Shown here: one piece after another, positions 1-38,482 of the stretch
Layout of the letters: each line of letters begins with the position of its first letter
How positions within the stretch are numbered: the first letter of the stretch is position 1
Source of the DNA: a virus
Reading direction: 5' to 3' (one strand)
DNA: 45,149 nucleotides
Virus record (IMG/VR): IMGVR_UViG_3300035492_000074
Location: 1 to 45,149 of that record
Made by a program: the position numbers and the translations under genes
The notes under the pieces: generated by a model
What the model was told of the DNA's origin: nothing
The model's database searches: none
The model's input: only the letters and a program-made list of their open reading frames with translations

Positions 1-127
1 GGTCGGTGCGCCTTGAGCAGGAACATGGTCAGCGGGTCGCTGTACTTGCGGACGTAGCCGACCTCGTCGCCCTTGTAGAACACCGGCTCCTCCGTGCCCT
101 GGAAGGCGCGCCGGTGGGCCTCAGCCT
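1..127. repeat. Terminal direct repeat, copy 1 (identical to 45023..45149); most likely a circular-assembly overlap
   Basis: Read base by base: 1..127 equals 45023..45149. The repeat lies inside a coding frame (terS) and has no end-specific structure. Confidence 0.9.
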
Positions 128-19597: not shown

Positions 19598-22336
19598 TTA
19601 CTCGACCGGCGCCTCAAGAGACGCAACGCGCGCACGAAGCTCCTGTACCTCCTTGATCAGCAGAGGGACAAACTTGCTGTAATCGACCATGAACTGATCT
19701 GTCTCGGTGACAGCTCGCGGGTAGACCTCAGCAACCTGCTGCGCGACCACGCCCCAGTCTTCGTGGCTACCGTCGGCAAGCCAGTCGTATTGCACGACCT
19801 GAATTGCATCAATCACGACGGAGGCGCTGTCAGCTTCCTCGATGTTCTCTTTCAGGCGGCGATCAGATGAAGTGGCGTAAGTGGTGGCGGTAGCAGAAGT
19901 AGAGATGCCGCCGACCTTTCCGTTCGGGTTGTAAAACTCCAGATGATCGCGCGCCGCCGTGCTATTACGGCTCGACTTCAAGCTGGTAGTGGTTACGTCC
20001 ACCTCCTTACCGCTCGTTGTACCGCTCACGTCAAAGGCGCCCACGCCAAGTGTGAGTCCGGTACTAGACCACTTTAGCGCGCGGTTACCGGCGATGGTCA
20101 CCGAAAAATCATCGTTAGCTAGCGCAATGCTACTACCACCATTTGCAGAGACCAGCTTGATGTAAGGGGACGTGGTTCCACCTTCGCCACGAACGGACCC
20201 GAGCAGTGCTGATCCGCCCAGGAATGTTTGCGCCACATACTCGCCAGACGTGTTTGAGCGAACACGATCACCCCGAATAATGGAAGGCGTGGCTGTGCGA
20301 GTGTCTCCGGGGAATCCAGGGTTATACTTCCAGCCTCCATCCAGCCAAGTGTTGTTGCCCGCTGCACCAGCGTAGTCATCGTCTTTGTTGTGCCGGAAGC
20401 TGCGGATAGTGTTGCGATTACAAGCAGCACCAAGCACCACTTCACGAGCGGTGTTTTGTTGCTCACAGTAGATAGTCAAGTCACTGCTTCGCAACTTTTT
20501 GATATCCATGCCGGGGGATACACCATCTAGCGCAGCGTTTTCCGAGTACCAAAACCCTTTCCAGTCGCGACCCATAAAGTCAGCAGAGGTTGCGATGCCT
20601 GAACCCCAGGTGAACTGCATAAACAGGTTGATTTCGCAGACGCTGAAGTCATCCTGCGTACCCTCGAAATAAACCCCGCGACCGCCCCACCAACCCCAAA
20701 GGGCGTCGATGTTGGTCTTGTTCATGTTGCCGGCGCAGGTGAAGCGATACAGGTCACCCTGGTGATACTGGCAGATGATCTTTCCACGGATGCGAATGCG
20801 CGCGCTGTTGAACCATACGCCGTGAGCGTTCGGGTTTGCCGGGGGCACAGCACCAGGCAGGGTCGGATCATAGAAGCCGGCACCAGTGCCGCGCAGATAA
20901 AGCGTCCCCTCAAGATCGAAATAGTCTGCGCCCCCTTGGATTTCAATACCTACGCCATCGAAGTCTTTCTGAATCTCACAACCGTCGCTGTAGACATTCA
21001 GCCCGTCGAGTCGGATGGTTCTGCTGATTTTGTAAACCGTATTTGGCAGGTATAGCACTTTGTCTGTACCGGCCAGCGCTGCCAGAGCGGCATCGCAAGC
21101 GTCGGCGATGTCGCCGCCAGGCACAGCGCCGAAGGATTCGATGCTAACCTTTTCGCCGTAGAAGCCGCGCAATGTCGAGCCGTTCAGCCCAATCATGCCG
21201 CTCGCGTCTAGCGACAGCTCCTGCCGCAGCTTGTCGTCGCTTGGGACCAAGGACGAAACCACCACCTCTATGTTGTCCGTGCCTGCCGGGGGCGCCTCGT
21301 CGAAGATCAGCACGTCGCCGTTAGCGCCACCTAGATCGTAGGTGTTCTTCTGCTGGTATACGCCCGAGATGAATACGTTGGTGATGCCCTCAGACTCCGG
21401 CGCGTAGTCGAGCAGGAACTCGGTCTCCACGCCATCGCCCGAAAGGTTCTGCACTGTCACAGCGCCAGTCACGGACTCGCGCCAAGCGCTGCCGTTGTAG
21501 GCGCGCATTGCGTTGGTGACGGTGCTGAAGTACAGGTCGCCTACCTGCAGCGGGGAGCCGTCGCGCCGGGTGGTTGGGTCGGTCGCGCTGGGGCCGTAGT
21601 AAACCCCGGAGAAGTTCGACAGATCGGTGATGTTGTCCGCAACGGTGTTCACGTCCGCGATGTTGCCCGCGACGGTGTTCACGTCGGTAATGCTGCCGGC
21701 CACCGTGTTCACGTCGGCGATGTTGTCCGACACGGTGTTCACGTCGGCGATGTTGTCCGCCACCGTGTTTACGTCCACGATGTTGTCGGACACCGTGTTG
21801 ATAGCCACCAGCGCGCCAACCACGCCGTTGACGGAGGCGATGTCCGGCCCCGCAACCGGCTCGCCGGTGGCTTCGTCGAAGGCCAGCACCGTTCCGGCAC
21901 GCGCAGATCGCCCAGGCAGATCGCCCACTGGCCCATCGCTCAGGGGGAACTTGAGGGTGCGGCTGACCACCGATGCAAGCTGCTGCAGCAGGATCGTCAG
22001 TCGGTCGAGCGCGGAGTTGATGACGCGGGGGTAGAAGCCGCCCTGGTTGGTCAGGTCAACCGGTTGCAGCATCTCCAGCGCGGAGGTGAGGGTGAGCCGA
22101 GTGCCGGTTGCGAGCGGGTTGGCCAGCACGACGCTGCCGCCAGGGGCTGCGTTCTGGTCGGCGTTCAGGGTGACCGTGTAGTCGGTCCCCAGCTCGAGGT
22201 CGGTCTCAACGGCGCCTGTTTCGGCGACCACCCGCACCTCGTCCGCGTCGAAGACTTTGAAGGTGAAGGGGAAGAATACGGTGGAGTCGTTGCCATCAAA
22301 AGGCCCCGCGACTCGTGTTTCGGAATTGATGGTCAT
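19598..22336 (-). CDS. Tail fibre/tailspike with a beta-helix-like centre and a C-terminal intramolecular chaperone (peptidase S74-like)
   Basis: 912 aa. The conserved N-terminal adaptor reads MTINSETRVAGPFDGNDSTVFFPFTFKVF.... Six decapeptide repeats DNIxDVNTVx follow. The central region (FGAVPGGDIADACDAALAAL...) resembles pectate-lyase-type spikes. The C-terminus SSDRRLKENIEE...VVQYDW...DYSKFVPLLIKEVQEL is the self-cleaving chaperone signature. Confidence 0.85.
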   Translation of the reverse strand: MTINSETRVAGPFDGNDSTVFFPFTFKVFDADEVRVVAETGAVETDLELGTDYTVTLNADQNAAPGGSVVLANPLATGTRLTLTSALEMLQPVDLTNQGGFYPRVINSALDRLTILLQQLASVVSRTLKFPLSDGPVGDLPGRSARAGTVLAFDEATGEPVAGPDIASVNGVVGALVAINTVSDNIVDVNTVADNIADVNTVSDNIADVNTVAGSITDVNTVAGNIADVNTVADNITDLSNFSGVYYGPSATDPTTRRDGSPLQVGDLYFSTVTNAMRAYNGSAWRESVTGAVTVQNLSGDGVETEFLLDYAPESEGITNVFISGVYQQKNTYDLGGANGDVLIFDEAPPAGTDNIEVVVSSLVPSDDKLRQELSLDASGMIGLNGSTLRGFYGEKVSIESFGAVPGGDIADACDAALAALAGTDKVLYLPNTVYKISRTIRLDGLNVYSDGCEIQKDFDGVGIEIQGGADYFDLEGTLYLRGTGAGFYDPTLPGAVPPANPNAHGVWFNSARIRIRGKIICQYHQGDLYRFTCAGNMNKTNIDALWGWWGGRGVYFEGTQDDFSVCEINLFMQFTWGSGIATSADFMGRDWKGFWYSENAALDGVSPGMDIKKLRSSDLTIYCEQQNTAREVVLGAACNRNTIRSFRHNKDDDYAGAAGNNTWLDGGWKYNPGFPGDTRTATPSIIRGDRVRSNTSGEYVAQTFLGGSALLGSVRGEGGTTSPYIKLVSANGGSSIALANDDFSVTIAGNRALKWSSTGLTLGVGAFDVSGTTSGKEVDVTTTSLKSSRNSTAARDHLEFYNPNGKVGGISTSATATTYATSSDRRLKENIEEADSASVVIDAIQVVQYDWLADGSHEDWGVVAQQVAEVYPRAVTETDQFMVDYSKFVPLLIKEVQELRARVASLEAPVE
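21629..21808 (-). repeat. Six tandem 30-bp coding repeats in the tail fibre gene
   Basis: Units start at 21629, 21659, 21689, 21719, 21749 and 21779 (GATGTTGTCCGCnACGGTGTTCACGTCnnC on the + strand). They are imperfect and encode (V/A/S)(D/G)(N/S)I(V/A/T)DVNTV. Confidence 0.9.
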
Positions 22337-22396: not shown

Positions 22397-25300
22397 CTAG
22401 CGGCCGGTTGCTATCCCGATGCCCATCTCGGCTGCAGACTGTGGGTCTTTGCGACCTGACTCGACGTCGAACAGGTAACCACCAGCCCGCGCCACCGGCG
22501 CTACCGGCAGTCCCGTGCCCAAGCCCAGCAGGGTGAGCAGGCTGCGGAACTCGGTCTTCGTGAACTCCTCGTCGAACACCTCGCCGGTGAGGATCGCTGC
22601 CAGCCCCTTGCCCGCGGATTCTCCCGCGGACAGCGCGGGGCCGACGTTGAGGCGGTCGTTCCACACTCGGCTATCGGACTGGTTGGCGACCAGCACCGCG
22701 CCGTGCCCCGCGATTGGGATCATCGTGGCCAGCGACTTGGCCTGGCTGCCGAAGAACATGGCCAGCCACTCATCCAGCAGTCCGTCGCCGTCCTCGTCAT
22801 CCTCGTCGTCCGGGGTGCCCTGGGAGATCAGCTCGGCGACGAACGCCGGGATCGCGAGGCCGGCGAACCAGATGAACATCAGCCGCGGGCTCGCCCGTAC
22901 GAAACCGGCCTCGCGCACCGCCTTGTTCGCCTCGTTGCCGATCAGGTTGCCCCACATGTTGAAGTAGCCGTAGAACTGGGTGAACAGCCGCACGAAGGGC
23001 GATTGCACCTCGAACGCCGAGATGTCCTCCGGCGCGAAGCTGCCCTGCGTCGTGCGCACCGTCTCGTCCGCGTAGCGGCGCGCCTCCTTCTCGGTGGCCC
23101 CCTGTGCGATGGCGTGGTCGTAGCCCCCGGTCCAGATGATCGGGTCCATCACGTTCTGCATGGCCTGCTGCAGGAAGTAGGCATGGCGGCGCACGAAGTC
23201 GGTGAACTGCTCGTACGGGTTGGGGTTGGTCAGGATCTGGTCGATCTGGTCCTGCATCGCGTAGGACTGGTTCGCCATCCGCTCAGCCAGCCAGGGCGAG
23301 CGCTCGCCCACCTGCTGGCGCATCTTGAGCGGATGGGCCAGGTAGCTGGCGGTGGCGCGCAGCAGCTTCGGCGCCGGCACCTTGAGTGCGGCCAAGCTAA
23401 ACCCGGTGAGCTGCTGCAGGGTGTTCACGATGTTGCCGAACATGAACAGCAACCCGGTGCGGCTGCGCAGCCCGTTGAAGAACCGGTTCATCTTCGGGTT
23501 CTTACCAGGCATCGATGCGCTCTGCCGCGCGGTGCGCTGCAACCATGGGGTCAACATGTCGCTGATCGCGCCAGGGCTCGCGCCGTTGAGCGCGCGGGCG
23601 ACCCGCTTGTTGCCCATCAGCTGAGCCACGTCCCTGATCGCGGGCTCGAGGTAGGCGAAGCGCGACACCTTGTCGAGATGCTGGCCGATGGCCCGCAGGT
23701 CCAGCTCAAGCGGCTTGTTGTAGAAGACGCGCGACTGGGTGAACCCTTTGCCGGTGGTCGGGAACATGAACGAGTTGCCAGCGTGCAGCAGCTCCTCCTG
23801 CTCGCGCTTCTGCGCCATATCCGGCGAGGACAGGCTATCGGCCAGCGCCGGGACGTAGCCGCCACGGTAGGTGCCGAACGGGGTGTTGATCGGGTCCGCG
23901 GTCACTTCGTTGAAGTAGTAGCCGTACATCTCCTTGTGCGCGGCCTGGGCGTCTTTCTTCACCGTCTCCAGCAGATCCCACACGCCCTGCGCGAAGTCGA
24001 AGTCGGCCTTGGTCAGCACGCCCTCGTTGATCATCCGGGTGATGAACTGGTCCCACTTGCTGGTGTCCAGTTGCCCGTTGGCGTCGAGCGTGCCCCAGCC
24101 TCGGCCGAGCAGCAGCTTGGTAAGGTTCGACTGGTTGCCGCTGTGCAGGACCGCGTGTAGCAGCTCGGACTTGCCCGCGTTGAACACGAAGCCGGTGGGG
24201 CCCAGCTCGGGCGCGTCGATCTTGTTGTAGGTGATGCCCTTCTCGATGGACTTGAGCAGGTCGCGGTACTGTGCCACCAGGGCGTTGCGCTTGTCGCGCA
24301 TGATGGTGGTCGCCTCGGACACCGGCTGCCAGATGTAGCGTTTGAACGCCGGGCCCCAGTTGTCGGCCCAGGTCTCCACGCGAGTCAGACTGGCCTTCGC
24401 ACTCAGCAGCGAGGCCTTCCACTTGTCCAGGCCGGTCGGCGTCCCGGTGTAGCCTGGCAGCGGCGGAATGGTGCCGCCCGAGCGCTCGGTCACAATGGCC
24501 ACCAGCTCGTCGGCGATTGCGTCGATGTCGACCTTTTGCCCGTCGATCTCCATCTGGCGGGTGCGGCGCGACAGGTAGTAGAGGCCGTTGACCACGTCGC
24601 GCATTCCGCGGAACTGCTCGACCGTCAGGTCGCGGAAGTCCACCGACGGCGGCAGGCCCTGCAGGATCGACTTGATGTCGGCGGCCATCGCGCCGTCGTA
24701 GTTCTCCAGCAACTGCTGGTAGGCCTGCGCGTTGGCGGCGCTGGTGTTCGGCGCCAGGCCGTAGCGGGCGAGCACGGCGCGAGCGGCGGTGACCATCGCG
24801 ACGTCGCGCGACTTGGCCAGCTTCTCGTTGGTGCCCTTGAAGATCTTCTTGAACCCGGCCAGGGCCTTGTCGTGCTCCTGTTGCGCGCGGCGCTGCGCCC
24901 GCTCCAGTTGCACCTGCAGGATCTCGGTGCGCTTGGCTTGAGCGGCTGCCGCGGTATCGCCGGAGGCCATCGCCTTCTCCGCGGCCTTGCGGGCGCGGGC
25001 GGCGCTGGCAGCGGCCAGATCCGGGCGTAGGTTGCGCACGGGCTTCGCGGCCACGATCTGCTCAGCGGCCTGGCGCGCGGCACGGGTCAGGGCCGCCGGC
25101 GAGCCGGTTGCCTTGGTCACGGCCTTGAGTTCGGTTGCGACGAGCCGCGAGCGGGCATCGTTGGCCAGCGCCTCGTTGGCGGCCTCGGCCATCGCCTCCG
25201 GCGAGGAGATGTCGCCGTGGCGCTCCAGCATGCGCTGGTCGGTCATGCCTTCGATCACGCTGGCCTTCGGCTCAGCGTTCAGCAGCTCGGTGACCAGCTG

Positions 25301-28300
25301 GCGCCCGGAGCGGAAGCCGAACATCTCGGCCACGGTGTCCGGGTGCAGGCCCGCGTCGGACAGCATGCCATACTTGCCGTAGCCCAGCTTGCGCCACTCG
25401 ACACCGGTGCCCAGCTCGCCCTCCGGGTACATGCGCTCCAGCTCGGTGATGTTCAGTTTCGCGGCCTTGGTGACCTCGATCTGGATCTGCGAACCGTCCT
25501 CGTCGGTGAGGCTGCCGAACTTCAGGAACTCCATCGCCTTGTAGATCGGCTGCTCGTTCACCTCCGCAGTGACCTCGTCGCGCACGGCCTTGCGCAGCGC
25601 CTGGGCAGCCTTCTGCAGCTCCTTGAGCTTGCGGCCTCGGGCGTTGTCCAGCCACTTCAGATCGCGCAGCGTGCGGGCCTGCAGCTCCTCGATGGCCTCG
25701 GCCTGTTGCTCCTGCAGCGTGGCCTGGTACTCGGCCCACGCCTCTGGCTCCATCCCGGCGTCTTCAGCGCTGCGGAACAGCGGCTCGAACTGACGCACGG
25801 CTTGCGCCGCGGCGATGGCCTCGTCGGTGGCGATCATCCGGTCGAAGACCGCGGCCACCTCCGGGTTCAGACTCGCGCGCTCGTTGGTGGCGAGCATCTG
25901 CTGCAGGCTGCGGTAGACGCTGATCAGCCAGGAGCGGAAGCGGCGGAACACGCTCTGCAGCTCTGCGCTCGGGGCCTTGCCCTCGAACAGGTACTGCTCG
26001 AACGTCTCGGCAATCGTCTCGTGCGCTTCTCGGCGCGCGTTGAGCGGCTGAGCCAGCCACTCAGCCGCGGTGCCGGTGTATCCAACGTGGTCGAGCAGCG
26101 TCTGCATGTCGGCGACGACCTCTGCCGGCGCGTTGGGCTGCGCGGCTAGCGTGGCCTGCATCTCGAAGAAGAAGTGCCCGGTCTCGTGCAGGAAGCTGGA
26201 GAGATCCGCCTTCTCTAGCAGCGCGATGTTCAGCGTGCTGGGGTTGAATGTGGCGCGTGCCTGGCCGGGTTGGTTGAGGATGTTCGGGTCAGCTGGATCG
26301 AACCCGCCGGTGTTGCCGATGGCGGACTTGATCTGGGTCGGGTCGAAGACAACGATCTCGCGTCCGCGGATGGCATTCTTAGCGTCGGAGTGCTTGACGC
26401 CACCCTTACGGCTGATCGCGTCGTTGCGGATTAGGGCGTCGTAACCCTGCTTTTCCACTTCCGAGACGTAACCCTCCGGCAACGGGGCTCCGAGCGGGAT
26501 ATTGGTCCTGATCGGCTCGTCGCGCTCGAGCGGGTTCTCCGCCCGAACATAGAGCGGCATCACGTTCTTCTGGAACGGTTGGTTGGGCTTGCCGTCGACC
26601 CAGCCGAACTCGTCGTACCGGTCAAGATACCGGCTTGCCATCTCGGGGTTGTCGGTTACCGAGATGCCGCTAACGCCTGTGTAGCCCATGAACTGGCCGT
26701 GCTTGTCGAACACCTGCTTATCGTCCAGGGTGGAGTGATAGACAACCAAGGGGCGCCCCTGGTCATCCACGATCTTGCTGTCGCCGAACCAGCGCCAGAA
26801 GGCCTGAATGCCCTCTTCGGTCTGGCTCAGCGGCGCGCCGTTGCTGTTTGTTGTTGGCCGAGCAATGCCCTCCACGAGGATTGTGTCGGTCTGCGCCGAC
26901 TGGTTGAACACGTCGCCCTGCTCTGCCTCGTCGGCGACACGCCCCTCGGTCCAGGTCCACTCCGGCATCAGGCCGGTCTTCTGGTCGGCGAACACGGTGT
27001 CCTCCACCTTGGCGGTGCGGTTCTGCTCGCCGTAGGGGCCGTAGTTCAGCCAGCTGTTCTGGCCGCGGGTCTCCGTGGTGATCGCAGCGACCGCCGAACC
27101 GGTGAAGAGCCGGACGTGCGCCTGCCAGGCGTTCTCCTCGCCGCGTGCCCGAAAGCCTGCGCCCTCGAGGCCGTGGCCGAAGGCGTCGTGAACCGCGCGG
27201 AACAGGTCGTTGGCCAGCACACGCTTCGGCGGGCCATCCGGCGAGCCATAGGGCCAGGTCAGACCGGTGTCGGCCAGCAGGGGGTTGTCGTCGACGTTCA
27301 GCTCGGTGGCACCGCTGCCGAAGCCAGCCTCGGTGGCGAAGACGCCCATCCGCTGGTTGGCCCGCAGATCGCGCATGGCGTTCCAGGGGTTCCCGGCGTA
27401 TGGGTCGTTGGTCTCGTCCACAAGGTAGAACTGGTAGCCGGCGGTCTCGAGCGCTTTGTACTGCGCCATGGTCTGGCGGATCAGATTCTCGAACGCCTCC
27501 TTGACCACCGGGTCTTGAGGGGCGTGCGGCATCGCCTCGTAGGCGGCCGCGATGCGGGCGGCGCGCTCGGGGTCTACTTCGACGTATTGCGCCTGCCGGC
27601 GGAGCGGGATTCCGTTTTCGCGGGCGTACTGCTCTGCGACTGCGACGAGGCGGGGGTCCGGGCCGGTTGCGCCTTCAACAGTTGGCGCACCCTCAAGCGG
27701 CGCAAGGCTTCCGCTCGAATACCGTCCTGCTCGGTCTCCACCTGCTCTGGCACCTTGGGCATCGGTCAGCGCTCCTTGGTTGAAGATGGCGCGCTCGGCG
27801 GCTGCGGGGTCGACGCCTTCAGGCTCTGCTCGGGCTGCGAGGGCTTCGCGGACGAGCTGGGTCGCTTCGCGCCGCAGACTATCAGGCCGCCTTTGAGCGG
27901 ATGATTTGCCGGGAGCGGTTGCCCCGTCCTGTTGATCACTGGCATAGCCGTACTCACTCTTCTGCGGGAAAGCGGAATAGACCTGATCGACGTGAATCTG
28001 GAATTCGTCGCCCAGGTGTTCGTTGATCCTACCCGCCAGATCCTCGTTGGACAGAGCGGAATAGTTCAGGATAGTCATCTGGCCGTTGGCCGTTGTGTGC
28101 CCGCCGACCAGCGGCTCGCCGTTCTCCTGCAGCTCGAACAGGCGGTCGTAGAGCGCGGTGACCTCGTTGGCGCCATAACCCTCCGGCAGGGAGATCGTGA
28201 CCGCCCCTACCGGTTCGGTGCCGATGGCCTGGGTCTCGGTGACCACCATCATGCTGTCCTGCGCCAGCGCGTGGCCCAGCAGCTTGGCGGCCTGCACGGC

Positions 28301-31300
28301 CAGCTCCGGACGGTCCAGTCGCAGGGTCATCGACGGGTTGGTCGCGCCCAGGTAGCCGCCCAGCTGCATAACGAAGTCGCCGGTGGTGGAGAGTTCGGCC
28401 AGCACCTTCGGGACCACCTGGGCGGCCACCTGCTGGCTGATCTCCAGCCGCTCGGCGTCCGACAAAGCATTCCACTGCTCGGTGAGCGCAGCGTCGTTCG
28501 GGTCTGGGGCGACCTCGAACATCACGCGCGCCTCGGCCGCCTCACCGGCGCCAGCGTCGCCGCGCTCGTCGATGGCGCGCTGGGCGTCGCCCTCGTAGGT
28601 GCGGCCGGGCGTGTCGTTGAACTCGGCCTCGGTCCAAGTCGGCGGGGTGATGTGGCCGGCCAGCTTCACGATCTCGGCCTGGGCCTGCGCCTGGTCGATC
28701 TCGCCCGCCTTGTAGCGCTCCCAGATCGCATTGGCCGGAGCCTTCATCGCGTTCTTGCGCGGCCCCTCGAACAAGCCACGCACCGCTTCCCAGGTGATCG
28801 ACTGCATCTCGCGCGGCAGCAGACCGCGGGCCTCGGCCGCGCGCCGGTAGGCTTCCAGATAGATCGGGTAGGTGCCGGACAGGCCGGTGATGCTGGAGCT
28901 GGCCGAGCCCGCGCCGCCGAAGTTCTGGACGACCTCCAGATCCCCACCGGCGAGGGGGCGGAGCAGGGCGGCAGCCACGGCGTGGGTGTCGATGGTGGCG
29001 AAGCCCATCTCCGACTTCGGGTCGAAGATGTTGTTGTAGAAGTTGCGCACCTTGTGCTCGCGGCCGAGCTGGTGGAAGACGTTCTCGGCGCGCCCGTCCA
29101 GATAGATGGAGATGGCGGCGGCGATGTTGTCGTAGGTCTTCCAAGCCATCGTGGCCGGGTTGCCGCTCGCGGTGGTGCGCAGGCCTGCAGCGCCGCCCTC
29201 CGGGGTTAGCACGTTGAACGCGCGGCTGTTGTGGGTCTGGTCGAAGACGCGAACCCAGCGGGCGGCCAGGTCCGGCCGGTCGAGCAGTTCGGAGAGCTTC
29301 TTGCCTCGCGCCAGCTCCATCTTCGGGTCGGTCTTGTCGCCCAGAATCCGGTCGGCCTCGACGCTCATCGCGTCGTCCCACTGGAAGTCGCGCATGCCGA
29401 ACAGGATGTCGGCGGTGCGCTCGGCGGCGCTGACGTTCTGGAACCAGTCGTTCTGCGGGCTGAGCACGGCAATAGCCGCAGCGGCCTGCATCTCGGAGAT
29501 GCCGTACCGGTTGGCCCAGGCCTCAGCCATCTTGCGCCCGCCGTCGTACCAGAGCTTCGCGCGGTCGCGCTGCTCGGCTGGCATCAGATCGTGAAGGAAC
29601 AGCAGGTTATCGACGACGTGCTCCACGAACTGCTCGACGACCTTGGCCGGCTTGCGCGCCTTGGTCGGGCGCATGTTCGGCATGGCGCGCAGGGTTGCCG
29701 CGTTCTTGGCGAGCGTCTTCTCGTCAGCCAGCACCGAGGCGAAGTCGATAGCGAGCACGTTGGCCAGTGCATCCTCGGTGGCGCGCACGGCGCTGGGCAC
29801 ACGGGTGGACAGGGACTGGTTGAAGACCTCGCTGTTGCGGGCGTCGGCGATGATGTCGGCGCGGTAGCGCGGCTCGTTGCCCTCGAACATGCCAGTCGGG
29901 GCGAGCGTAGCGTACAGCTCCGGCTCGAGGCGTTCAGTCAGCTCGCCCAGGCGACTCGGCGCAATCTGACCGGCTGGCAGTCGGTTGCTCGCGTCGAGCG
30001 CATCGAGCGCAGCCTGCAGCGGGCTTCGCGCCTGCGCGGCGGCTTCGGCGGGGGCGGCACGTTCGGTGGTCGGCACGTTGTAGGCCGCCTCGCCCAGCAG
30101 CGCCACGACGCCGGAGGTTTTGCCGCCGCCCACGGCCATGACGCCTGGGACGTAGTAGCCGTCGAAGCCGGCGTCGAGCACAGCCTGCTCGCGCGCGTTG
30201 GCGTCCGCACCGGTCCAGATGCCGAGCGGGTCTTTGCCGGTGTCGTAGATGTTCGACATCGTGACGCCGTGCTCGACGCTGCCTACGCCCTGCTCCGGGC
30301 GCACGCCGGCGCCCTCGTCGACGTAGGCCAGCACGCGAGAGCGCAGCGGACTGTCCTCGGGCAAGCCAGCCAAACGTGCGCGCTCGGCGCCCTTCAACCC
30401 GGTGCCGAAGAAACGGCCATCGAGGACCGGCCGGCGGGTGGTGGAGAAGTGAACGCCCTGCACCGTGAGCGCGCCAGGTTTGGCCTCTGGTGTAACGCTG
30501 GAGGCGTACTGGTCCAACACCTGGGCTTGCTGCTGCCCTGGTGCGCGGGAGGTCACGGTCAGCGGAAACCGCGCGTACATCTCCTGCGGGGTGATGCCCA
30601 GCTTGCTGGCCTGCACCGCGTAGAAGTTGCGCACCAGCGTGGCGTAAGCCCGGTTCACGTCGGGGGTGAAGCGGCCCGCTTTGCTCAGCTCACCCATCAG
30701 GGTGTCGAATACGGCGTTGCTGCTGTCCTCCCAGGCCTGCGCCTCGGTCTGCTCGGCGAGCACCTTCTGCGCATCCTGCTCCAGCTGGGCCAGCAGCTGC
30801 GCACCCTCTTCCGCCTCGGCGGCGGTCCAGGCGTCTTCGGAGACGCGCGCGTTGCGCACGATCTCCTGCTCGAGCCCCGAGCCGGCGAAGGCTGCAGTGG
30901 CCTCGCCAATTGGAATGGCGACGGCGCCATCGGTGGCCAGCGCCTCTTCCAGCTGCTCCTGCACGCTCGGCAGGGACTGGGCGAGCTGCTCCGGCGTCAT
31001 GCCAGCGGATTCCAGCAGCGGGGCGAGCACGCGGGCGTCGATGAAGATCTCGGTGGGCGAGCTGCCGGAGTCTTCGGCGGCGCCCTGCACCAGCTGCGCA
31101 AAGGTCTGCGGGTCGCGCTGGCGGGTCATGCTGGCCGCGGCGGCGGTCATCAGGTCGGCCAGTTGCTGCGCGTTCTGGTTGGCGGTGTCGGCGGCGTACT
31201 GGTTGCGGTCCAGCGTACCGGCCAGGCGGCCGACGCCCTCGCCGATGGTGGCGAGCGTACCCGACTGCACCAGCGTCGCGAACGCTGTCTGGATAGCCGC

Positions 31301-32440
31301 CTCGGGGCGCTCGGCCAGGTAGTCGTTCCACGTCTTGGTGGGGTTGGCAATAGCGGTGTCGATGGCGTCCTGCGCGAGCGTGGCGATCTGCTCGCCGGCC
31401 ATGTCGCGTCCCAGGAAGCCGGCGAAGAAGTCGGTGAGGCCAGCCTTGCCCAATCGGTCGACGGCGAACTTCATCGGTACCAGCTCGGTAAGCACCTCCA
31501 CCGAGGCCTCGCCGGCGGCGCCCAGGCTCGCCATGCCCTTGCTCGCGTCGCGCCCGCGGTAGCGACCGTAGGCCTCGCCATAGGTCTGCAGGCCCATCAG
31601 CCCCAGGCCCAGCGCAGGGCTACCGGTGGCCATTGACAGGCCCATCGCGGGTGCCGTCTGCGCGAGCGAGGAGAAGCCGCCGTAGGTCCAGCGCGCGACG
31701 TTGGTGTCGAACTCGGGCGTGGCAAGCTGCCGCTCGAAGTCAAGCTGCCCGCGCTGGCGGTTGTACTGTTCGGTGCGCTCCTCGTTGCCGCCGAACAGAT
31801 CGCCGATCTGCTGGGCCAGACCGAGCTTGGCGGACTTGAACCCGGTAGTGGCGTCGGTGGCCAGGCCGGAGAGGATGTTGCCGGGGGCGGCCTCGGGCTG
31901 TCGAATCTCGCCGATGATGCCGGTTGCACGCAGCAGTTCGCGGCGCTGCTGCTGGCGGCGGCTGAGCGCGGAAGCCGCGGCGAAGCCCTCGGTGCGCAGC
32001 ACCCGCTCGCGCTCGCGCCGCTCGGCGGCGTAGTCAGGGAGCAGGCGGTCTGTCGCGGCTTGCGTGGGGCCCACGCCCAGGTCGCCTAGCATGTTCTGAT
32101 CGATCCGGCCGCGGATCGCCTGCTCGACGGCCGACAGCTGCTCGACGTCGTCGCGGGCCACCAGCGCGTTGTCCGGGTTGGCCAGATAGGCGGCGGCGGT
32201 GGGGAAGCGCTTGGCGTAGTCGGTGGCGTCGAAACTCTCCTGCGCGACCGCTTGCTTGGTCGCGGCGGGGTCGGTGCGGGCGGTTTCAAGAGGGATGCCC
32301 AACCGGCGCGAGGCCGCGCGCAGTTGGGATTCATCATCTGGTGAAGTGGTGGAGCGTGATGCGACCGAGAGGCTGTTGCTCAAGTCCCGCGCCAGGATTT
32401 GTGGATCGACATAGAGCGGGATGTTCTTTTCGTCAGCCAT
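22397..32440 (-). CDS. Giant multidomain (polyvalent) internal virion/ejection protein, 3347 aa
   Basis: A single uninterrupted ORF with consistent GC3, occupying the gp16 position of a T7-like structural cluster. It contains an ART-like module (aa ~1876-2057, FWRWFGDSKIVDDQGRPLVVYHST...EIVVFDPTQIKSAIGNTGGFDPADPNILNQ). It also contains HExxH (FLHETGHFFFE, aa 2085), VHDAFGHG (aa 1751), long coiled-coil stretches, and hydrophobic segments near both termini. Confidence 0.85.
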   Translation of the reverse strand: MADEKNIPLYVDPQILARDLSNSLSVASRSTTSPDDESQLRAASRRLGIPLETARTDPAATKQAVAQESFDATDYAKRFPTAAAYLANPDNALVARDDVEQLSAVEQAIRGRIDQNMLGDLGVGPTQAATDRLLPDYAAERRERERVLRTEGFAAASALSRRQQQRRELLRATGIIGEIRQPEAAPGNILSGLATDATTGFKSAKLGLAQQIGDLFGGNEERTEQYNRQRGQLDFERQLATPEFDTNVARWTYGGFSSLAQTAPAMGLSMATGSPALGLGLMGLQTYGEAYGRYRGRDASKGMASLGAAGEASVEVLTELVPMKFAVDRLGKAGLTDFFAGFLGRDMAGEQIATLAQDAIDTAIANPTKTWNDYLAERPEAAIQTAFATLVQSGTLATIGEGVGRLAGTLDRNQYAADTANQNAQQLADLMTAAAASMTRQRDPQTFAQLVQGAAEDSGSSPTEIFIDARVLAPLLESAGMTPEQLAQSLPSVQEQLEEALATDGAVAIPIGEATAAFAGSGLEQEIVRNARVSEDAWTAAEAEEGAQLLAQLEQDAQKVLAEQTEAQAWEDSSNAVFDTLMGELSKAGRFTPDVNRAYATLVRNFYAVQASKLGITPQEMYARFPLTVTSRAPGQQQAQVLDQYASSVTPEAKPGALTVQGVHFSTTRRPVLDGRFFGTGLKGAERARLAGLPEDSPLRSRVLAYVDEGAGVRPEQGVGSVEHGVTMSNIYDTGKDPLGIWTGADANAREQAVLDAGFDGYYVPGVMAVGGGKTSGVVALLGEAAYNVPTTERAAPAEAAAQARSPLQAALDALDASNRLPAGQIAPSRLGELTERLEPELYATLAPTGMFEGNEPRYRADIIADARNSEVFNQSLSTRVPSAVRATEDALANVLAIDFASVLADEKTLAKNAATLRAMPNMRPTKARKPAKVVEQFVEHVVDNLLFLHDLMPAEQRDRAKLWYDGGRKMAEAWANRYGISEMQAAAAIAVLSPQNDWFQNVSAAERTADILFGMRDFQWDDAMSVEADRILGDKTDPKMELARGKKLSELLDRPDLAARWVRVFDQTHNSRAFNVLTPEGGAAGLRTTASGNPATMAWKTYDNIAAAISIYLDGRAENVFHQLGREHKVRNFYNNIFDPKSEMGFATIDTHAVAAALLRPLAGGDLEVVQNFGGAGSASSSITGLSGTYPIYLEAYRRAAEARGLLPREMQSITWEAVRGLFEGPRKNAMKAPANAIWERYKAGEIDQAQAQAEIVKLAGHITPPTWTEAEFNDTPGRTYEGDAQRAIDERGDAGAGEAAEARVMFEVAPDPNDAALTEQWNALSDAERLEISQQVAAQVVPKVLAELSTTGDFVMQLGGYLGATNPSMTLRLDRPELAVQAAKLLGHALAQDSMMVVTETQAIGTEPVGAVTISLPEGYGANEVTALYDRLFELQENGEPLVGGHTTANGQMTILNYSALSNEDLAGRINEHLGDEFQIHVDQVYSAFPQKSEYGYASDQQDGATAPGKSSAQRRPDSLRREATQLVREALAARAEPEGVDPAAAERAIFNQGALTDAQGARAGGDRAGRYSSGSLAPLEGAPTVEGATGPDPRLVAVAEQYARENGIPLRRQAQYVEVDPERAARIAAAYEAMPHAPQDPVVKEAFENLIRQTMAQYKALETAGYQFYLVDETNDPYAGNPWNAMRDLRANQRMGVFATEAGFGSGATELNVDDNPLLADTGLTWPYGSPDGPPKRVLANDLFRAVHDAFGHGLEGAGFRARGEENAWQAHVRLFTGSAVAAITTETRGQNSWLNYGPYGEQNRTAKVEDTVFADQKTGLMPEWTWTEGRVADEAEQGDVFNQSAQTDTILVEGIARPTTNSNGAPLSQTEEGIQAFWRWFGDSKIVDDQGRPLVVYHSTLDDKQVFDKHGQFMGYTGVSGISVTDNPEMASRYLDRYDEFGWVDGKPNQPFQKNVMPLYVRAENPLERDEPIRTNIPLGAPLPEGYVSEVEKQGYDALIRNDAISRKGGVKHSDAKNAIRGREIVVFDPTQIKSAIGNTGGFDPADPNILNQPGQARATFNPSTLNIALLEKADLSSFLHETGHFFFEMQATLAAQPNAPAEVVADMQTLLDHVGYTGTAAEWLAQPLNARREAHETIAETFEQYLFEGKAPSAELQSVFRRFRSWLISVYRSLQQMLATNERASLNPEVAAVFDRMIATDEAIAAAQAVRQFEPLFRSAEDAGMEPEAWAEYQATLQEQQAEAIEELQARTLRDLKWLDNARGRKLKELQKAAQALRKAVRDEVTAEVNEQPIYKAMEFLKFGSLTDEDGSQIQIEVTKAAKLNITELERMYPEGELGTGVEWRKLGYGKYGMLSDAGLHPDTVAEMFGFRSGRQLVTELLNAEPKASVIEGMTDQRMLERHGDISSPEAMAEAANEALANDARSRLVATELKAVTKATGSPAALTRAARQAAEQIVAAKPVRNLRPDLAAASAARARKAAEKAMASGDTAAAAQAKRTEILQVQLERAQRRAQQEHDKALAGFKKIFKGTNEKLAKSRDVAMVTAARAVLARYGLAPNTSAANAQAYQQLLENYDGAMAADIKSILQGLPPSVDFRDLTVEQFRGMRDVVNGLYYLSRRTRQMEIDGQKVDIDAIADELVAIVTERSGGTIPPLPGYTGTPTGLDKWKASLLSAKASLTRVETWADNWGPAFKRYIWQPVSEATTIMRDKRNALVAQYRDLLKSIEKGITYNKIDAPELGPTGFVFNAGKSELLHAVLHSGNQSNLTKLLLGRGWGTLDANGQLDTSKWDQFITRMINEGVLTKADFDFAQGVWDLLETVKKDAQAAHKEMYGYYFNEVTADPINTPFGTYRGGYVPALADSLSSPDMAQKREQEELLHAGNSFMFPTTGKGFTQSRVFYNKPLELDLRAIGQHLDKVSRFAYLEPAIRDVAQLMGNKRVARALNGASPGAISDMLTPWLQRTARQSASMPGKNPKMNRFFNGLRSRTGLLFMFGNIVNTLQQLTGFSLAALKVPAPKLLRATASYLAHPLKMRQQVGERSPWLAERMANQSYAMQDQIDQILTNPNPYEQFTDFVRRHAYFLQQAMQNVMDPIIWTGGYDHAIAQGATEKEARRYADETVRTTQGSFAPEDISAFEVQSPFVRLFTQFYGYFNMWGNLIGNEANKAVREAGFVRASPRLMFIWFAGLAIPAFVAELISQGTPDDEDDEDGDGLLDEWLAMFFGSQAKSLATMIPIAGHGAVLVANQSDSRVWNDRLNVGPALSAGESAGKGLAAILTGEVFDEEFTKTEFRSLLTLLGLGTGLPVAPVARAGGYLFDVESGRKDPQSAAEMGIGIATGR

Positions 32441-32454
32441 GTGATGGGGTCCGT

Positions 32455-34599
32455 TTATTGCTGCCTGAGGTCTCCCATGAAGAACGCTTCCAGCATCTGC
32501 TGATCTGTCGGCTCGTCGATGCCTTGAGCCCGGAAGTCAGCTTCGATTGCAGTGCGTAGCTCTTTGGGTATGTCGCCGACAGTAGCGCCGAACAGTGTGG
32601 CTTTGCGCACCTCGTCTGCGTTGCCCATGAACCGGGAGAGCCAGCTTTCGTTCTTGAACGAGCGCGTTTTCAGGAACAGCTCGTCGACCACTTTCGTGAT
32701 CTCCGCGTCGTTGAACGCGCGGCCCTCGGCCTGCTGGCGCAGAAGCACCTCGTCGTTGATCGTCTTGCGGATCGCGCCGACTCTAGCAAGTGCTGCACCG
32801 CCCTTGGCTTTGGGGTCCAGCCCCATGCTCTGCAGCCGGCTGTCCACCACGTTGTTGATCATCGCCTGGTCCAGCGTGCCGGGTGCCTTCTCGCCGGTTG
32901 GGGTTCGGCCGCGCATGTCGGAGAACTTCTTGAAGTCCGACTCCGACAGGTACTGGCGCTGGGCGTAGAACTCGCTCTCGCTCATGTTGCGCACGCGCTC
33001 GGGGTCGCTAGCCAGCAGCTGGTAGGTGGCCAGGTCCGAATGTTGCCGACCGTTGCCGCGCACCGTCTCCTCGTACTTGCGCAGATCGTCCCACTTGCTT
33101 GGGTCCACCTTATCGCGGATCTCGCGGGGGATGGTGTCGTAGCGCCCGCCGTTCTCGATGTGGCGCATGCCCTCGGCGAAGGCGTTGCTGCGGGTCTCGG
33201 CCTGGCCTTTGGTGTAGAGGGTGTAGCGGCGGTTCAGCTCCTCGCGGGCCTTCTGCAGGGCGTTCGGGCGGGTGCGCAGATCCGGGTCGGCGTCGAGGCG
33301 CGCGTGTAGCTCCTCCAGCGACGGCGTGGCCGGGCGGCCTTCGCCCTTCGCGTAGGCCTGCAGGTTCCTGGCGACGTAGTTTTGCGTCTCCGTGGGCAGC
33401 TTGTCCAACCAGCCCGCGGGGTTGCCTTCGTCGGCGGCCTCCTCGAGTGCCTTGTTCACCGCCCCCGGTCCGGCGTTGTAGGCCGCCCAGGCGTGTGCCA
33501 GGTTGCCGTCGTACTCCCGCACCATGGCGTGCAGATAGTCACGCCCCACGCGCGCCCGCTCGTCCGGGGAGTCGTCCGCGGCCGGGCGCACGCCATAGCC
33601 GGGGTCGAGGTTCGTGCCGTCCATCACCTGCATCTCGCCCTTGGCGCCGGCCGGGGAGGTCAGCAGCTGGCCGTCCGCGCCGAAGCGCCGGCCGCCCGAC
33701 TCGGTCTGCATGGTGATCGCGGTCACCCGGTCCATGTCGGTCGGGTTGTCCGCCTGGGTGTATGCCGTGAACGTCTGGTTGGCCTTGGCGTTGCCGATGT
33801 AGACCGAGGCCAGCTCGTCGACGCTGGCACGGGCCTTGAGGAGATCCGCGGGGTCCATCTGCGCCTTGTAGGTCCGCAGGTACTGCTCCGCGTAGAGCGG
33901 GTTGTTGGTGGCCAGCGCCTGCTCGATGGCGCCGAGGTGGGCGGCGCTCACGAGTTTGGTGGTGCGGTCTTCGATCTGCACGGCGGACAGGCCACGCAGG
34001 CGACCGTCCTTCATGGCTGCGGCGCGGATCGACAGCACCGACTGATCGATGCGGGCGGGGTCGTTGTAGAAGGCGGCCATCTCCCGGCTGGCGGTGGCGA
34101 CGGTGCCCTCGGCCACGGAGAGCTGGTAGTTGGTGTTCTCCTGCCCCTCGTAGTTCATCAGGTTGCCGCGGAACTGCGCCAAGCGCTCGGCTGCGCGCTG
34201 CTGGAATAGCTGGCGCTGCGCCTCGTTGCCAAGGCTCTGGGCCAGCTCGCTGGTGCGGGCGTTCAGCCGCTCGTAATACTCGTCGGACAGGGGCTTGTTA
34301 TCCGGGCGCTGTAGCGCCTGCACGCCCTTCAACCGGGTGTAGCCGTTCTGCTCGCTGTAGGTGAGGTCTAGCTCCGCCTCGCGTAGTTGATTGAGTGCGT
34401 CGTCGACGCGGGACTGGTTGGCCTCCTGCTGAGCGCGCTCGAACGCGCCGGCCAGATTGCCAAGGCCTTGGGAGAGCTGGCCAAGTTCACGCGCCTGGGC
34501 GGCGCCGAAGGCGTCATCCGGGGTGGCGACTTGAACCCGCGCGCCCGGCAGAGCTTGGGTGCGGACCTGGGGTCCGTCAACGACTGGAACGCGGGCCAT
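32455..34599 (-). CDS. Internal virion protein with a lytic transglycosylase (SLT) domain
   Basis: SLT motifs are MQTESGG (catalytic Glu, about nt 33700-33702), GEMQVMDGT and AAYNAGPG. The ATG at 34599 overlaps the upstream stop (TGATG) with GGGGGTGG upstream. A GTG at 34608 is the ORF-track start. Confidence 0.85.
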   Translation of the reverse strand: MARVPVVDGPQVRTQALPGARVQVATPDDAFGAAQARELGQLSQGLGNLAGAFERAQQEANQSRVDDALNQLREAELDLTYSEQNGYTRLKGVQALQRPDNKPLSDEYYERLNARTSELAQSLGNEAQRQLFQQRAAERLAQFRGNLMNYEGQENTNYQLSVAEGTVATASREMAAFYNDPARIDQSVLSIRAAAMKDGRLRGLSAVQIEDRTTKLVSAAHLGAIEQALATNNPLYAEQYLRTYKAQMDPADLLKARASVDELASVYIGNAKANQTFTAYTQADNPTDMDRVTAITMQTESGGRRFGADGQLLTSPAGAKGEMQVMDGTNLDPGYGVRPAADDSPDERARVGRDYLHAMVREYDGNLAHAWAAYNAGPGAVNKALEEAADEGNPAGWLDKLPTETQNYVARNLQAYAKGEGRPATPSLEELHARLDADPDLRTRPNALQKAREELNRRYTLYTKGQAETRSNAFAEGMRHIENGGRYDTIPREIRDKVDPSKWDDLRKYEETVRGNGRQHSDLATYQLLASDPERVRNMSESEFYAQRQYLSESDFKKFSDMRGRTPTGEKAPGTLDQAMINNVVDSRLQSMGLDPKAKGGAALARVGAIRKTINDEVLLRQQAEGRAFNDAEITKVVDELFLKTRSFKNESWLSRFMGNADEVRKATLFGATVGDIPKELRTAIEADFRAQGIDEPTDQQMLEAFFMGDLRQQ

Positions 34600-35120
34600 C
34601 AGGACCACCCCCAGCTCTTCAGCCTTGCCTGGCCAGCGTCTGTGGCAGCGAACTGGCCTGCAGAGCTGAGCAGCGACAGGCCGGCGGCGCGAGTGGAGTT
34701 TTGCGCGCGGGCGGCGCTCGAGTACATCTGCGAGCTGGCCATCTCGTTGTCAGCCTGCACGCTATACCCCCACGCCTCGCGGGCGGCGTTGTTGCGGATC
34801 GTCTGGACGTCCTGCGCACCGAAGAACGCGGTGTCCTCGAGGATCGACAGTGACGAGCCGGAGGTGATGTCCAGGCCGTTGCTGGCCAGGCGCGCCACCT
34901 GAGTGCCGCGCATGCGCTCGGCTTGGCGGGCGGCCTGCTGGGCGTCCTCCTCGCCGCGGCGCAGCGCGTCCTCGCGCTGGTAGCCTGCCATGGTGGCGTT
35001 GGCCTGGGCCACGTCGGACTGATACTCGGCCTGCGCTTTTGCCGCTTGGCTCGACGAGTAGGCCCCGTACGCCCCAACGGCGGCGGACGCTGCTAAGAGG
35101 ATGGTTGTGGGTTCGCACAT
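34599..35120 (-). CDS. Internal virion protein (173 aa, N-terminal hydrophobic segment), in the T7 gp14 position
   Basis: MCEPTTILLAASAAVGAYGAYSS is followed by a Gln/Ala-rich helical region. Synteny places it between the GNAT-like and SLT proteins. Confidence 0.7.
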   Translation of the reverse strand: MCEPTTILLAASAAVGAYGAYSSSQAAKAQAEYQSDVAQANATMAGYQREDALRRGEEDAQQAARQAERMRGTQVARLASNGLDITSGSSLSILEDTAFFGAQDVQTIRNNAAREAWGYSVQADNEMASSQMYSSAARAQNSTRAAGLSLLSSAGQFAATDAGQARLKSWGWS

Positions 35121-35123
35121 GGC

Positions 35124-35570: not shown

Positions 35571-35577
35571 CTCTACC

Positions 35578-38441: not shown

Positions 38442-38451
38442 GCGGTTGTCT

Positions 38452-38482
38452 CCAAAAAGAAAAGGGGCCATGAGGCCCCTTT
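38452..38482 (-). terminator. Intrinsic terminator inside the structural operon (after the capsid-associated genes)
   Basis: The minus strand reads AAAGGGGCC-TCAT-GGCCCCTTT followed by TTCTTTTTGG. It lies between the stop at 38505 and the start at 38441. Confidence 0.7.

Follow-up and report, generated by a model that had tools for sequence, protein, structure and literature searches.

A predicted ADP-ribosyltransferase-fold domain and a conserved HExxH module adjoin in a giant polyvalent phage protein

Among the domains of polyvalent proteins, ADP-ribosyltransferases (ARTs) are the commonest protein-modifying domain and zincin-like metallopeptidases (MPTases) form a hub domain, with autoprocessing having been predicted (PMC5512222). 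The ART-PolyVal family (PF18760) is the N4-ART family and belongs to the Tox-ART-HYD2 clade (PMC5512222; Iyer et al. 2022, PMC9503650). Its active site is made up of a His in strand 1, a Tyr in strand 2, and an Asp in strand 5 (Iyer et al. 2017, PMC5512222). These ARTs and peptidases of polyvalent proteins were predicted in 2017, and no biochemical tests of them were found in the literature searched. Here, we describe a giant protein encoded on the minus strand of IMG/VR virus record IMGVR_UViG_3300035492_000074 (positions 1 to 45,149, the whole 45,149-nucleotide stretch being called the window below), in which an ART-like domain is directly followed by a HExxH module. An earlier reading of this DNA from its letters alone (the sequence-only reading) had proposed that the two, if active, would form an injected pair, an NAD-dependent modifier and a metallopeptidase.

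Compared with ART-PolyVal, the domain of the window has the same WFGxSKxVD...VVYH start and VVFxPxQIKSAxGNxGxFDP end, the same His and Asp, and the same kind of site, in a polyvalent protein among late structural genes. It differs in that HGT is replaced by HS[ST] and G.YFT by GIS[VL]TD, and in a helix, RYL[DE]R[YF], and an insertion, ISRxGxVKHxxAKNAIxG, that are specific to a subfamily. T4 Alt offers an analogy as a virion-carried ART-fold enzyme that is delivered with the DNA, as the protein of the window would be. However, Alt belongs to the R-S-E (Arg-Ser-Glu) clade and is made as a protein of its own, whose capsid-targeting sequence is cut off by the prohead protease, whereas the ART of the window comes from the H-Y-[ED] (His-Tyr-Glu/Asp) clade and is embedded in a giant, putative ejection protein. 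With the zincin-like MPTases of polyvalent proteins (residues 2130 to 2448 of the N4 virion RNA polymerase [vRNAP], P1 DdrB, and ArdC), the HExxH module shares the HExxH helix after beta strands, a conserved Glu in a helix further on, a variable insert separating the two helices, and a hub position beside many effector domains. It differs from them in having no significant sequence, profile, or fold match, in its additional invariants FExYxxEGxAP, W2171, and Y2176, and in its fixed place at the start of a conserved core of ~1,270 residues. The Pfam family MPTase-PolyVal covers neither this module nor the N4 region. In the literature searched, we found no description of the Ser/His ART subfamily reported below, nor of the fixed position of this HExxH module, for which Pfam has no model, at the cargo/core boundary of hundreds of giant podophage proteins. 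The reading that we favor, with moderate confidence, is that of an ejected polyvalent protein carrying an NAD-using ART-like cargo, with a HExxH module that would release the cargo.

Layout of the giant protein

The features on which the argument turns are as follows.

22397-32440, minus strand: giant open reading frame (ORF) of 3,347 amino acids plus stop, from the ORF list, its translation, Pfam, and PHROG 9880
26270-26815, minus strand: ART-fold domain, residues 1876-2057; the Pfam ART-PolyVal match is residues 1892-2047 (nucleotides [nt] 26300-26767)
25766-26269, minus strand: HExxH module, residues 2058-2225 (~170 residues), from homologues, alignments A2 and A3, AlphaFold2, and a 93-sequence conservation profile
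22400-26269, minus strand: conserved C-terminal core, residues 2058-3347, from PHROG 9880 and blastp; common to Bbp10, Jess A gp39, and IMG/VR relatives

The giant ORF is a single uninterrupted reading frame of 3,347 codons, in which residue k starts at nt 32440-3(k-1). Pfam placed three domains in the protein, LPD22 (residues 25 to 111), DUF7178 (residues 937 to 1049), and ART-PolyVal (residues 1892 to 2047), and PHROG 9880 spanned residues 2051 to 3347. A sequence search of the PDB with the whole giant protein returned nothing meaningful. By megablast, the giant gene had no nucleotide match in the phage collection, and relatives were detectable at the protein level only.

The protein was compared by blastp with gp39 of Caulobacter phage Jess A, Bbp10 of Bordetella phage BPP-1, its nearest relative in IMG/VR (L002), and four giant proteins of the representative library. 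Residues ~10 to 650 were common to all of the compared proteins, and similarity to every relative resumed at residues 2051 to 2060 and continued to the C terminus; the middle ~1,400 residues were mosaic among relatives. Judged by these alignments, the protein is composed of three parts: a conserved N-terminal part of ~650 residues, ~1,400 residues of exchangeable cargo, and a conserved core of ~1,290 residues. The stretch that begins with the HExxH module and ends at the stop codon was 1,230 to 1,709 residues long, mostly 1,230 to 1,430, in the 73 related ORFs whose 3' end is complete, and the length before the module varied from ~600 to 2,000 residues among related ORFs. The ART-like domain is the last domain of the cargo, and the HExxH module is the first element of the core. 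Because LPD22, DUF7178, ART-PolyVal, and the HExxH module share one ORF within structural genes, and because the cargo is mosaic, the giant protein fits the definition of a polyvalent protein given by Iyer et al. 2017 (PMC5512222).

Bbp10 and Jess A gp39 occupy the same gene slot, and their N-terminal ~650 and C-terminal ~1,290 residues are homologous to those of the giant protein at 31 to 37% identity; for Bbp10 (locus L053, which is BPP-1), identity was 32% over residues 2059 to 3347 and 31% over residues 30 to 637. The protein of the window is ~1,300 residues longer than either, the difference lying in a larger cargo section. In Bbp10, the module is not preceded by an ART, whereas Jess A has a canonical ART there.

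Just upstream of the ART-like domain lies a conserved domain of unknown function (26921-27658, minus strand; about residues 1595 to 1840), which matched PHROG 3170 and had no Pfam or PDB match. It contains the enzyme-like motifs NDLFRAVHDAFGHG, GEENAW, ETRGQNSWLNYGP, and ADQKTGLMPEW, and the same domain stands immediately ahead of ART or HExxH modules in the proteins P0149, P0198, P0230, and P0245.

The ART-like domain: fold, active site, and probable activity

Residues 1876 to 2057 read EGIQAFWRWFGDSKIVDDQGRPLVVYHST...GISVTDNPEMASRY...GREIVVFDPTQIKSAIGNTGGFDPADPNILNQ, starting with EGIQAFWRWFGDSKIVDDQGRPLVVYHST and ending with GNTGGFDPADPNILNQ. The Pfam ART-PolyVal profile was matched end to end (positions 1 to 140 of 140), with an E value of 9e-16 and 59.3 bits in the whole protein and an E value of 2e-18 and 67.7 bits in the isolated segment, the curated gathering cut-off of the family being 31.2 bits. 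An exhaustive phmmer search with the segment found 9,245 representative proteins at an E value of 1e-3 or below, many of them with multiple copies. Some proteins of 1,700 to 5,300 residues (P0090 to P0096) carried 9 to 22 ART-PolyVal stretches each, a range that reaches past the 12-copy Pseudomonas example of Iyer et al. 2017.

The AlphaFold2 model of the segment, built from 34 sequences, had a mean predicted local distance difference test (pLDDT) value of 90.4 and a predicted template modeling (pTM) score of 0.85. In a Foldseek search of the PDB with this model, the top 50 matches were all catalytic domains of PARP1, PARP2, PARP4, or tankyrase, the best having an E value of 4e-4 and a probability of 1.0, with template modeling (TM) scores of 0.4 to 0.48 among the matches. 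As judged from the predicted structure, assignment to the ART fold is secure. The YH[GS]T motif is similar to the YHGT found in diphtheria toxin and to the HGS found in PARPs. Compared with the H-Y-E (His-Tyr-Glu) ARTs, namely, PARP1, PARP2, tankyrase, and diphtheria toxin, of which the PARP and tankyrase domains were the best structural matches, the domain of the window shows sequence identity of 10 to 15% at those same TM scores, its acid is Asp rather than Glu, and the strand-2 Tyr is gone.

The positions of interest in the domain are listed here.

26732-26737, minus strand: His1902-Ser1903 in strand 1 (YHST); the conserved NAD-site His, with Ser in place of the family Gly
26660-26662, minus strand: Ser1927 in strand 2 (GISVTD), in the family Tyr column (G.YFT) of the alignments
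26438-26440, minus strand: Asp2001 (GYDALI), invariant acidic column D126 of alignment A1, at the start of the strand-5 equivalent
26390-26398, minus strand: Val-Lys-His, residues 2015-2017, inside the subfamily-specific insertion ISRKGGVKHSDAKNAIRG
26324-26335, minus strand: QIKS, residues 2036-2039, the C-terminal hallmark of ART-PolyVal; Q161 and S164 of A1 are invariant and K163 is nearly so

In alignment A1, the domain of the window was found to have kept His1902, the strand-3 aromatic residue Tyr1964, Asp2001, and QIKS. Both model and alignment place His1902 within the predicted strand VVYHST, and a strand of the model begins at segment residue 127, one residue after Asp2001. Glu2028, located before the IVVF strand, was considered as the catalytic acid by analogy with NEYIVY of PARP1 and was rejected, its column being unconserved.

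The changed residues mark a coherent group. The motif RYL[DE]R[YF] defined a subfamily of 31 relatives (some counts were made over 32 rows) with 53 to 77% identity. The equivalent of His1902 was His in 28 of the 31, that of Ser1903 was Ser in 31/31, and that of Asp2001 was Asp in 29/31. At the strand-2 position, Ser occurred 25 times and His 7 times, with an aromatic residue in none of the 32 rows. The insertion ISRxGxVKHxxAKNAIxG, of ~20 residues, is absent from canonical ART-PolyVal, and its Lys and His were present in 28 and 30 of the 32 rows, respectively. All other ART copies found just upstream of the HExxH module in related giant proteins, including that of Jess A, have YHG[TS] and a strand-2 Tyr, Phe, or Trp.

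Members of the subfamily were found in several settings. P0031 (L082 6001-6663) is a stand-alone protein of 220 residues, 68% identical to the domain of the window, and its gene lies between T4-type gp13 and gp14 neck genes on an 11-kb metagenomic contig. On a phage-like contig, the subfamily member P0035 is encoded next to an integrase at one end. Two other giant proteins contain members, P0098 at 73% and P0097 at 68% identity, and in P0097 the Ser-type ART is followed by a canonical ART copy. The existence of P0031 as a stand-alone protein and the presence of both ART types in P0097 speak for a distinct function under selection. We conclude that the ART-like module is a divergent, selected ART-PolyVal homologue gained by domain shuffling; since the defining strand-2 Tyr is absent, it was not filed as a canonical H-Y-D ART.

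The claims of the sequence-only reading about this segment were borne out in part. The strings that it quoted are present at the positions that it gave in the translation of 22397-32440, its identification of residues 1876 to 2057 as a homologue of polyvalent-protein ARTs agrees with a Pfam score above the cut-off and a PARP-like predicted fold, and the Ser that it pointed out after YH is not a peculiarity of the window but a mark of the whole subfamily. Where it had suggested looking for a H-Y-E or R-S-E triad, neither H-Y-E/D nor R-S-E was found intact, Ser1927 having replaced the Tyr.

The most likely activity of the domain appears to be NAD-dependent transfer, an expectation that we hold at somewhat better than even strength from the alignments. 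It is favored because the His, the Asp, and the pocket aromatic residue are kept and because a strand-2 Ser serves NAD binding in the R-S-E group; ARTs of the R-S-E clade bind NAD+ with a Ser-containing strand 2. Several points weigh on the other side. The Gly after the His has become Ser1903 and the strand-2 Tyr has become Ser1927, and in PARPs and diphtheria toxin it is the Gly of HG[ST] and the strand-2 Tyr that touch the nicotinamide. Three of the 31 subfamily members lack the His, and therefore the subfamily may not use NAD+ canonically. No biochemically characterized member of ART-PolyVal was found in the literature searched.

An alternative is that the domain is not an NAD-dependent transferase at all and is instead a binding or structural pseudoenzyme, or an ART-fold enzyme with shifted substrate or chemistry, in which the new Ser/His and Lys-His residues would stand in for the missing Tyr and Gly. 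The exchange of the strand-2 Tyr for Ser or His and of the Gly for Ser runs throughout the subfamily, with the His lost in three members and the Asp in two; the Pfam score of 59 bits is low for ART-PolyVal; and the presence in P0097 of a Ser-type domain beside a canonical ART suggests that the two are not redundant. However, many polar residues are strongly conserved at the identity levels given above, across stand-alone T4-like and podophage giant-protein contexts alike, the His and the Asp are retained in about 90% of the subfamily, and a strand-2 Ser is compatible with NAD use, as in the R-S-E ARTs. We consider this alternative possible but doubtful, and NAD-dependent transfer is retained as the favored activity.

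The HExxH module and its pairing with effector domains

Two clusters of residues characterize the module.

26174-26188, minus strand: HETGH, residues 2085-2089 (first His at nt 26186-26188), on the predicted helix of residues 2080-2100
25991-26023, minus strand: His2140-Glu2141...Glu2148-x-Tyr2150, on the predicted helix of residues 2133-2153; candidate third metal ligand and catalytic tyrosine

The ART segment ends 27 residues before HETGH, which is part of FLHETGHFFFE and is followed by ETFEQYLFEGKAPSAELQSVFRRFRSWLISVY at residues 2145 to 2176. The HExxH motif occurs once in the giant protein, against 0.03 occurrences expected from composition. In an alignment of 93 sequences, the H, E, and H of the motif were each 100% conserved, and His2140, Glu2141, Glu2148, and Tyr2150 were 98 to 100% conserved. 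The full set of residues with 96 to 100% conservation comprised His2085, Glu2086, Gly2088, His2089, Asp2111, His2140, Glu2141, Ala2144, Glu2148, Tyr2150, Glu2153, Gly2154, Pro2157, Trp2171, and Tyr2176, giving the signature HExGH ... D ... HExxAxxFExYxxEGxAP. In its short form (HExxH, HE, FExY, and EGxAP), the signature shows ~97% conservation. By alignment to a hidden Markov model, H-E-x-x-H was present in 100 of the 103 database homologues that cover the site, and it was present in 81/81 related viral loci, a set found partly with the HExGH pattern itself. P0027 and P0287 have HLxxD in place of HExxH and Arg-Gln in place of His-Glu at 2140-2141, and P0291 has NExxH and has lost Glu2148. In P0027 and P0287, the phage core is replaced by a C-terminal fusion to a hydrophobic, membrane-like region. 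Relatives of the module are encoded in no fewer than 527 stretches of IMG/VR, and the word-indexed database yielded 140 proteins.

The AlphaFold2 model of the module (pLDDT, 86) consists of a short, two-residue strand, a beta-hairpin (residues 2063 to 2066 and 2071 to 2074), the long HETGH helix (residues 2080 to 2100), two short helices, and the helix of residues 2133 to 2153. In P0098 (about residues 1530 to 1670) and P0186, an insert of ~150 to 200 residues with the ParB/Srx-like motif DGHRRVMAARAAG separates the HExxH helix from the HE..A..FE.Y helix; because of these inserts, the interhelix loop appears to tolerate the insertion of a whole domain. From the conserved residues, we read a putative gluzincin-type metal site, with the two His residues and Glu2141 or Glu2148 as ligands and Glu2086 as the base. 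The module is probably a zincin-type metal-dependent hydrolase: its HExxH, general-base Glu included, is invariant, a Glu and a Tyr further downstream are conserved, and the predicted secondary structure fits. The term zincin-like is used here to denote motif conservation and predicted secondary structure rather than demonstrated membership of a family.

The searches for zincin kin weigh against such an assignment. The best Pfam match of the module was Tox-MPTase4 with an E value of 0.25, with no significant zincin; Peptidase_M78 reached an E value of 0.043 in only 3 of 26 members, which is below threshold. NCBIfam and PADLOC scans of the module yielded nothing relevant above subthreshold noise, and PDB sequence and profile searches with both module profiles gave no meaningful match. 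A profile search with A3 recovered matches of the same family only, with no bridge to annotated zincins. In Foldseek searches with the model, nothing in the PDB fell below an E value of 0.6, and BFVD returned uncharacterized homologues only. The best zincin among the Foldseek matches was anthrax lethal factor, with an E value of 1.5 and a probability of 0.41; it appeared six times, at probabilities of 0.15 to 0.41 and a TM score of about 0.29. Moreover, no N-terminal helix like that of the canonical zincin core was seen in the model.

A possible link to the MPTase region of N4 vRNAP was examined with hhalign. Against the single N4 sequence, the signal was weak. A related-locus search with N4 as the query returned N4 alone. 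Against an alignment of 11 sequences (N4 and ten other N4-like phages), 107 columns aligned in register with a score of 26.0, a P value of 0.006, and a probability of 6%, the shared register being G...I.L...T.LHExxH plus a later F..W helix. The maximum of 30 column shuffles was 20.0, compared with 26.0 for the real alignment. The reversed alignment scored 22.2, and masking of HExxH lowered the score to 18.6 (P = 0.086), which also counts against kinship; the N4 signal depends largely on the HExxH motif. The MPTase region of N4 vRNAP itself had no Pfam zincin match, and for that reason the missing Pfam match of the module is uninformative.

The relation between the module and its upstream neighbors was examined in the window protein and 73 related giant proteins (74 in total) by scanning the 320 residues before the module. 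ART-PolyVal was found there in 22/74. The other domains were LPD3 (7 proteins), PBECR3 (5), PBECR1 (2), and GNAT (2), together with single cases of Zeta toxin, LPD37, LPD23, PBECR5, DUF3293, and DUF3990. The same order, effector and then module, was also found in short database proteins. The HExxH module is hence a general partner of exchangeable effectors, the ART being one of several. Gln2057 and Arg2062, located before the first strand of the module, were at least 90% conserved whichever domain lay upstream.

Several short proteins of this kind come from bacteria. P0011 (L096, L097, 8001-9056), a PBECR3 nuclease joined to a HExxH module, is an orphan gene in a bacterial chromosome, located between hpuAB-like heme-uptake genes and norB with no phage genes nearby, and it is conserved in dozens of assemblies. 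The PBECR3-HExxH proteins P0008 and P0013 are from Neisseria. A gene of the P0011 type has the appearance of a polyvalent-protein fragment that was captured.

The sequence-only reading had placed a zincin-like module directly after the ART and had stated that such a module often accompanies it. The adjacency is confirmed by the conserved module with HETGH at residues 2085 to 2089, and the pairing by the 22 proteins in which ART-PolyVal lies within 320 residues upstream. Of the range that it had assigned, the limits of the ART hold, whereas the module runs to about residue 2225 (nt 25766), past its boundary at nt 25880. A profile match to a zincin family, which it had named as a check, was not obtained, nor was a significant fold match.

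The release function proposed for the module also has to be weighed against roles other than self-processing. The module might be a host-directed effector peptidase, or it might be a metal-stabilized structural or encapsidation element, like the C-terminal region of N4 vRNAP that is needed for packaging. Such roles would fit its presence in the conserved core of every relative, whether or not a recognizable effector lies upstream, and the lack of a significant peptidase fold match; N4 vRNAP, moreover, is packaged unprocessed despite its MPTase region (PMC5512222). Against them, the general-base Glu is invariant, and metal binding alone does not need this residue. In addition, the module always stands directly C-terminal of exchangeable effector domains, and it forms the end of short effector-module proteins that have no core (P0013 and P0002). 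These alternatives therefore seem rather unlikely to us, and cargo release by the module is kept as the favored role.

Genomic setting, the h-[FL]-N-Q motif, and a possible delivery mechanism

An exact 127-bp direct repeat was found at both ends of the window (1-127 = 45023-45149). Since a terminal repeat of this kind is the residue that an assembler leaves of a circular or terminally redundant genome, the window is probably a whole podophage genome of about 45,022 bp with 65% G+C. The nearest named phages are the Caulobacter phages Jess A, RapA, SR18, and BL94 and Bordetella phage BPP-1, which have the same gene order; the kin of the genome are BPP-1 and Jess A (genus Rauchvirus). The genome has many spurious long ORFs on both strands, and the neighboring minus-strand ORFs were identified by PHROG and Pfam scans as follows.

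43290-44882, minus strand: large terminase
41389-43074, minus strand: portal
40259-40888, minus strand: protease (prohead maturation protease)
39246-40244, minus strand: major capsid protein
37815-38471 and 35578-37818, minus strand: tail tube proteins A and B
34599-35900, minus strand: two small internal virion proteins
32455-34608, minus strand: internal virion protein of 717 residues with a lytic transglycosylase (SLT) domain (PHROG 10475, Pfam SLT); its position matches that of BPP-1 Bbp11
19598-22336, minus strand: tail fiber

The gene order is T7-like and collinear with those of BPP-1 and Jess A, with the giant ORF between the SLT protein and the tail fiber. By position, the giant ORF corresponds to the gene for the large internal core or ejection protein (BPP-1 Bbp10, T7 gp16); the comparison with T7 gp16 is one of gene slot. 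Because of this synteny with internal-virion genes, the giant protein would be expected to be packaged and ejected. The injected pair of the sequence-only reading is thus a reasonable proposal as regards delivery, the gene lying among internal-virion and ejection genes, but the NAD-dependent and peptidase activities are not assured. In the same region, a listed ORF of 258 residues (35124-35900, minus strand) overlaps the tail tube B gene (35578-37818) by 323 nt; the true start codon of this internal virion ORF is probably further downstream, since its PHROG 308 match begins at residue 108. Public labels on orthologous giant proteins include "lysis protein," "crystallin beta/gamma motif-containing protein," and "coil containing protein," none of which reflects the domain content.

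A short motif, h-[FL]-N-Q, recurs within the giant protein.

29816-29827, minus strand: h-[FL]-N-Q site at residue 872
27776-27787, minus strand: h-[FL]-N-Q site at residue 1552
26900-26911, minus strand: h-[FL]-N-Q site at residue 1844
26270-26281, minus strand: h-[FL]-N-Q site at residue 2054

The last of the four is ILNQ (residues 2054 to 2057), at the ART/HExxH junction. Four sites in the cargo region compare with about 0.2 expected from 2,000 shuffles, the motif having been chosen post hoc. The third site falls at the start of the ART similarity block (residues 1842 to 1845, compared with P0097 and P0098), and the fourth falls at the start of the core. Among 72 independent relatives, the strict motif occurred 40 times in the cargo (4.1 expected) and 0 times in the core (4.3 expected), many of the occurrences being homologous in position, as in the N-terminal YVDAEVLNQLP and the DPNILNQ of the ART end. 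The motif may be a domain-junction or cleavage-site signal. Its sole other strict match in the structural proteins was AEILNQT in the capsid protein (residues 30 to 33; nt 40145-40156, minus strand). This site aligns with MLNE in BPP-1 and LLTQ in Jess A, and the capsid-protein motif is probably not a conserved maturation site. The giant protein of BPP-1 has one strict motif, and that of Jess A has zero.

It might be supposed from these data that the polyprotein is cut at h-[FL]-N-Q by the prohead maturation protease (40259-40888), as T4 gp21 does with Alt and internal proteins. The excess of sites in the cargo of the giant protein, the 40 cargo motifs of the relatives with none in the core, and the single further match in the major capsid protein would all be in keeping with this. 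However, the motif was picked post hoc and many sites are homologous in position, BPP-1 and Jess A manage with one and zero strict motifs in their giant proteins, and the capsid ILNQ is unconserved in both phages. For this last reason, cleavage by the prohead protease is kept as a low-probability rival only and is regarded as improbable. Finally, the notion that the similarities arose by chance in a long ORF of biased composition, for which the shortness of HExxH and the many spurious ORFs of a 65% G+C genome might be cited, is refuted by Pfam E values of 1e-15 to 1e-18, more than 9,000 representative proteins homologous to the ART segment, no fewer than 527 viral loci with relatives of the module, and two confident predicted structures.

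In the favored reading of an ejected polyvalent protein with releasable cargo, the giant protein would travel inside the capsid and be ejected together with the DNA. The HExxH module would then cut the polyprotein at or near the cargo/core junction, and this cut would free soluble cargo, the ART-like domain included, from a core that spans the envelope. The freed ART-like domain would go on to modify a host macromolecule with NAD+. A more ambitious joint proposal is that the group with HS, Ser or His, Asp, and the VKH insertion is an undescribed ART-fold subfamily with altered cofactor or acceptor chemistry and that the HExxH module, at the fixed junction of effector array and ejection core, acts as the self-processing protease that releases cargo in a delivery system widespread among podophages, cutting at h-[FL]-N-Q or within Q2057...R2062. 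Taken as a whole, we regard this combination as unlikely.

Injected phage effectors decide the first minutes of infection, and this locus presents a compact test case in which one ORF combines an ART fold of noncanonical active site with a module at the cargo/core boundary. Labels such as "lysis protein" and "crystallin beta/gamma motif" on its relatives say little and could be replaced. If the Ser/His subfamily is active, it would widen the known range of active-site configurations among ADP-ribosyltransferases. If the module releases cargo, the giant proteins would constitute a natural modular system for the delivery of enzymes into bacteria.

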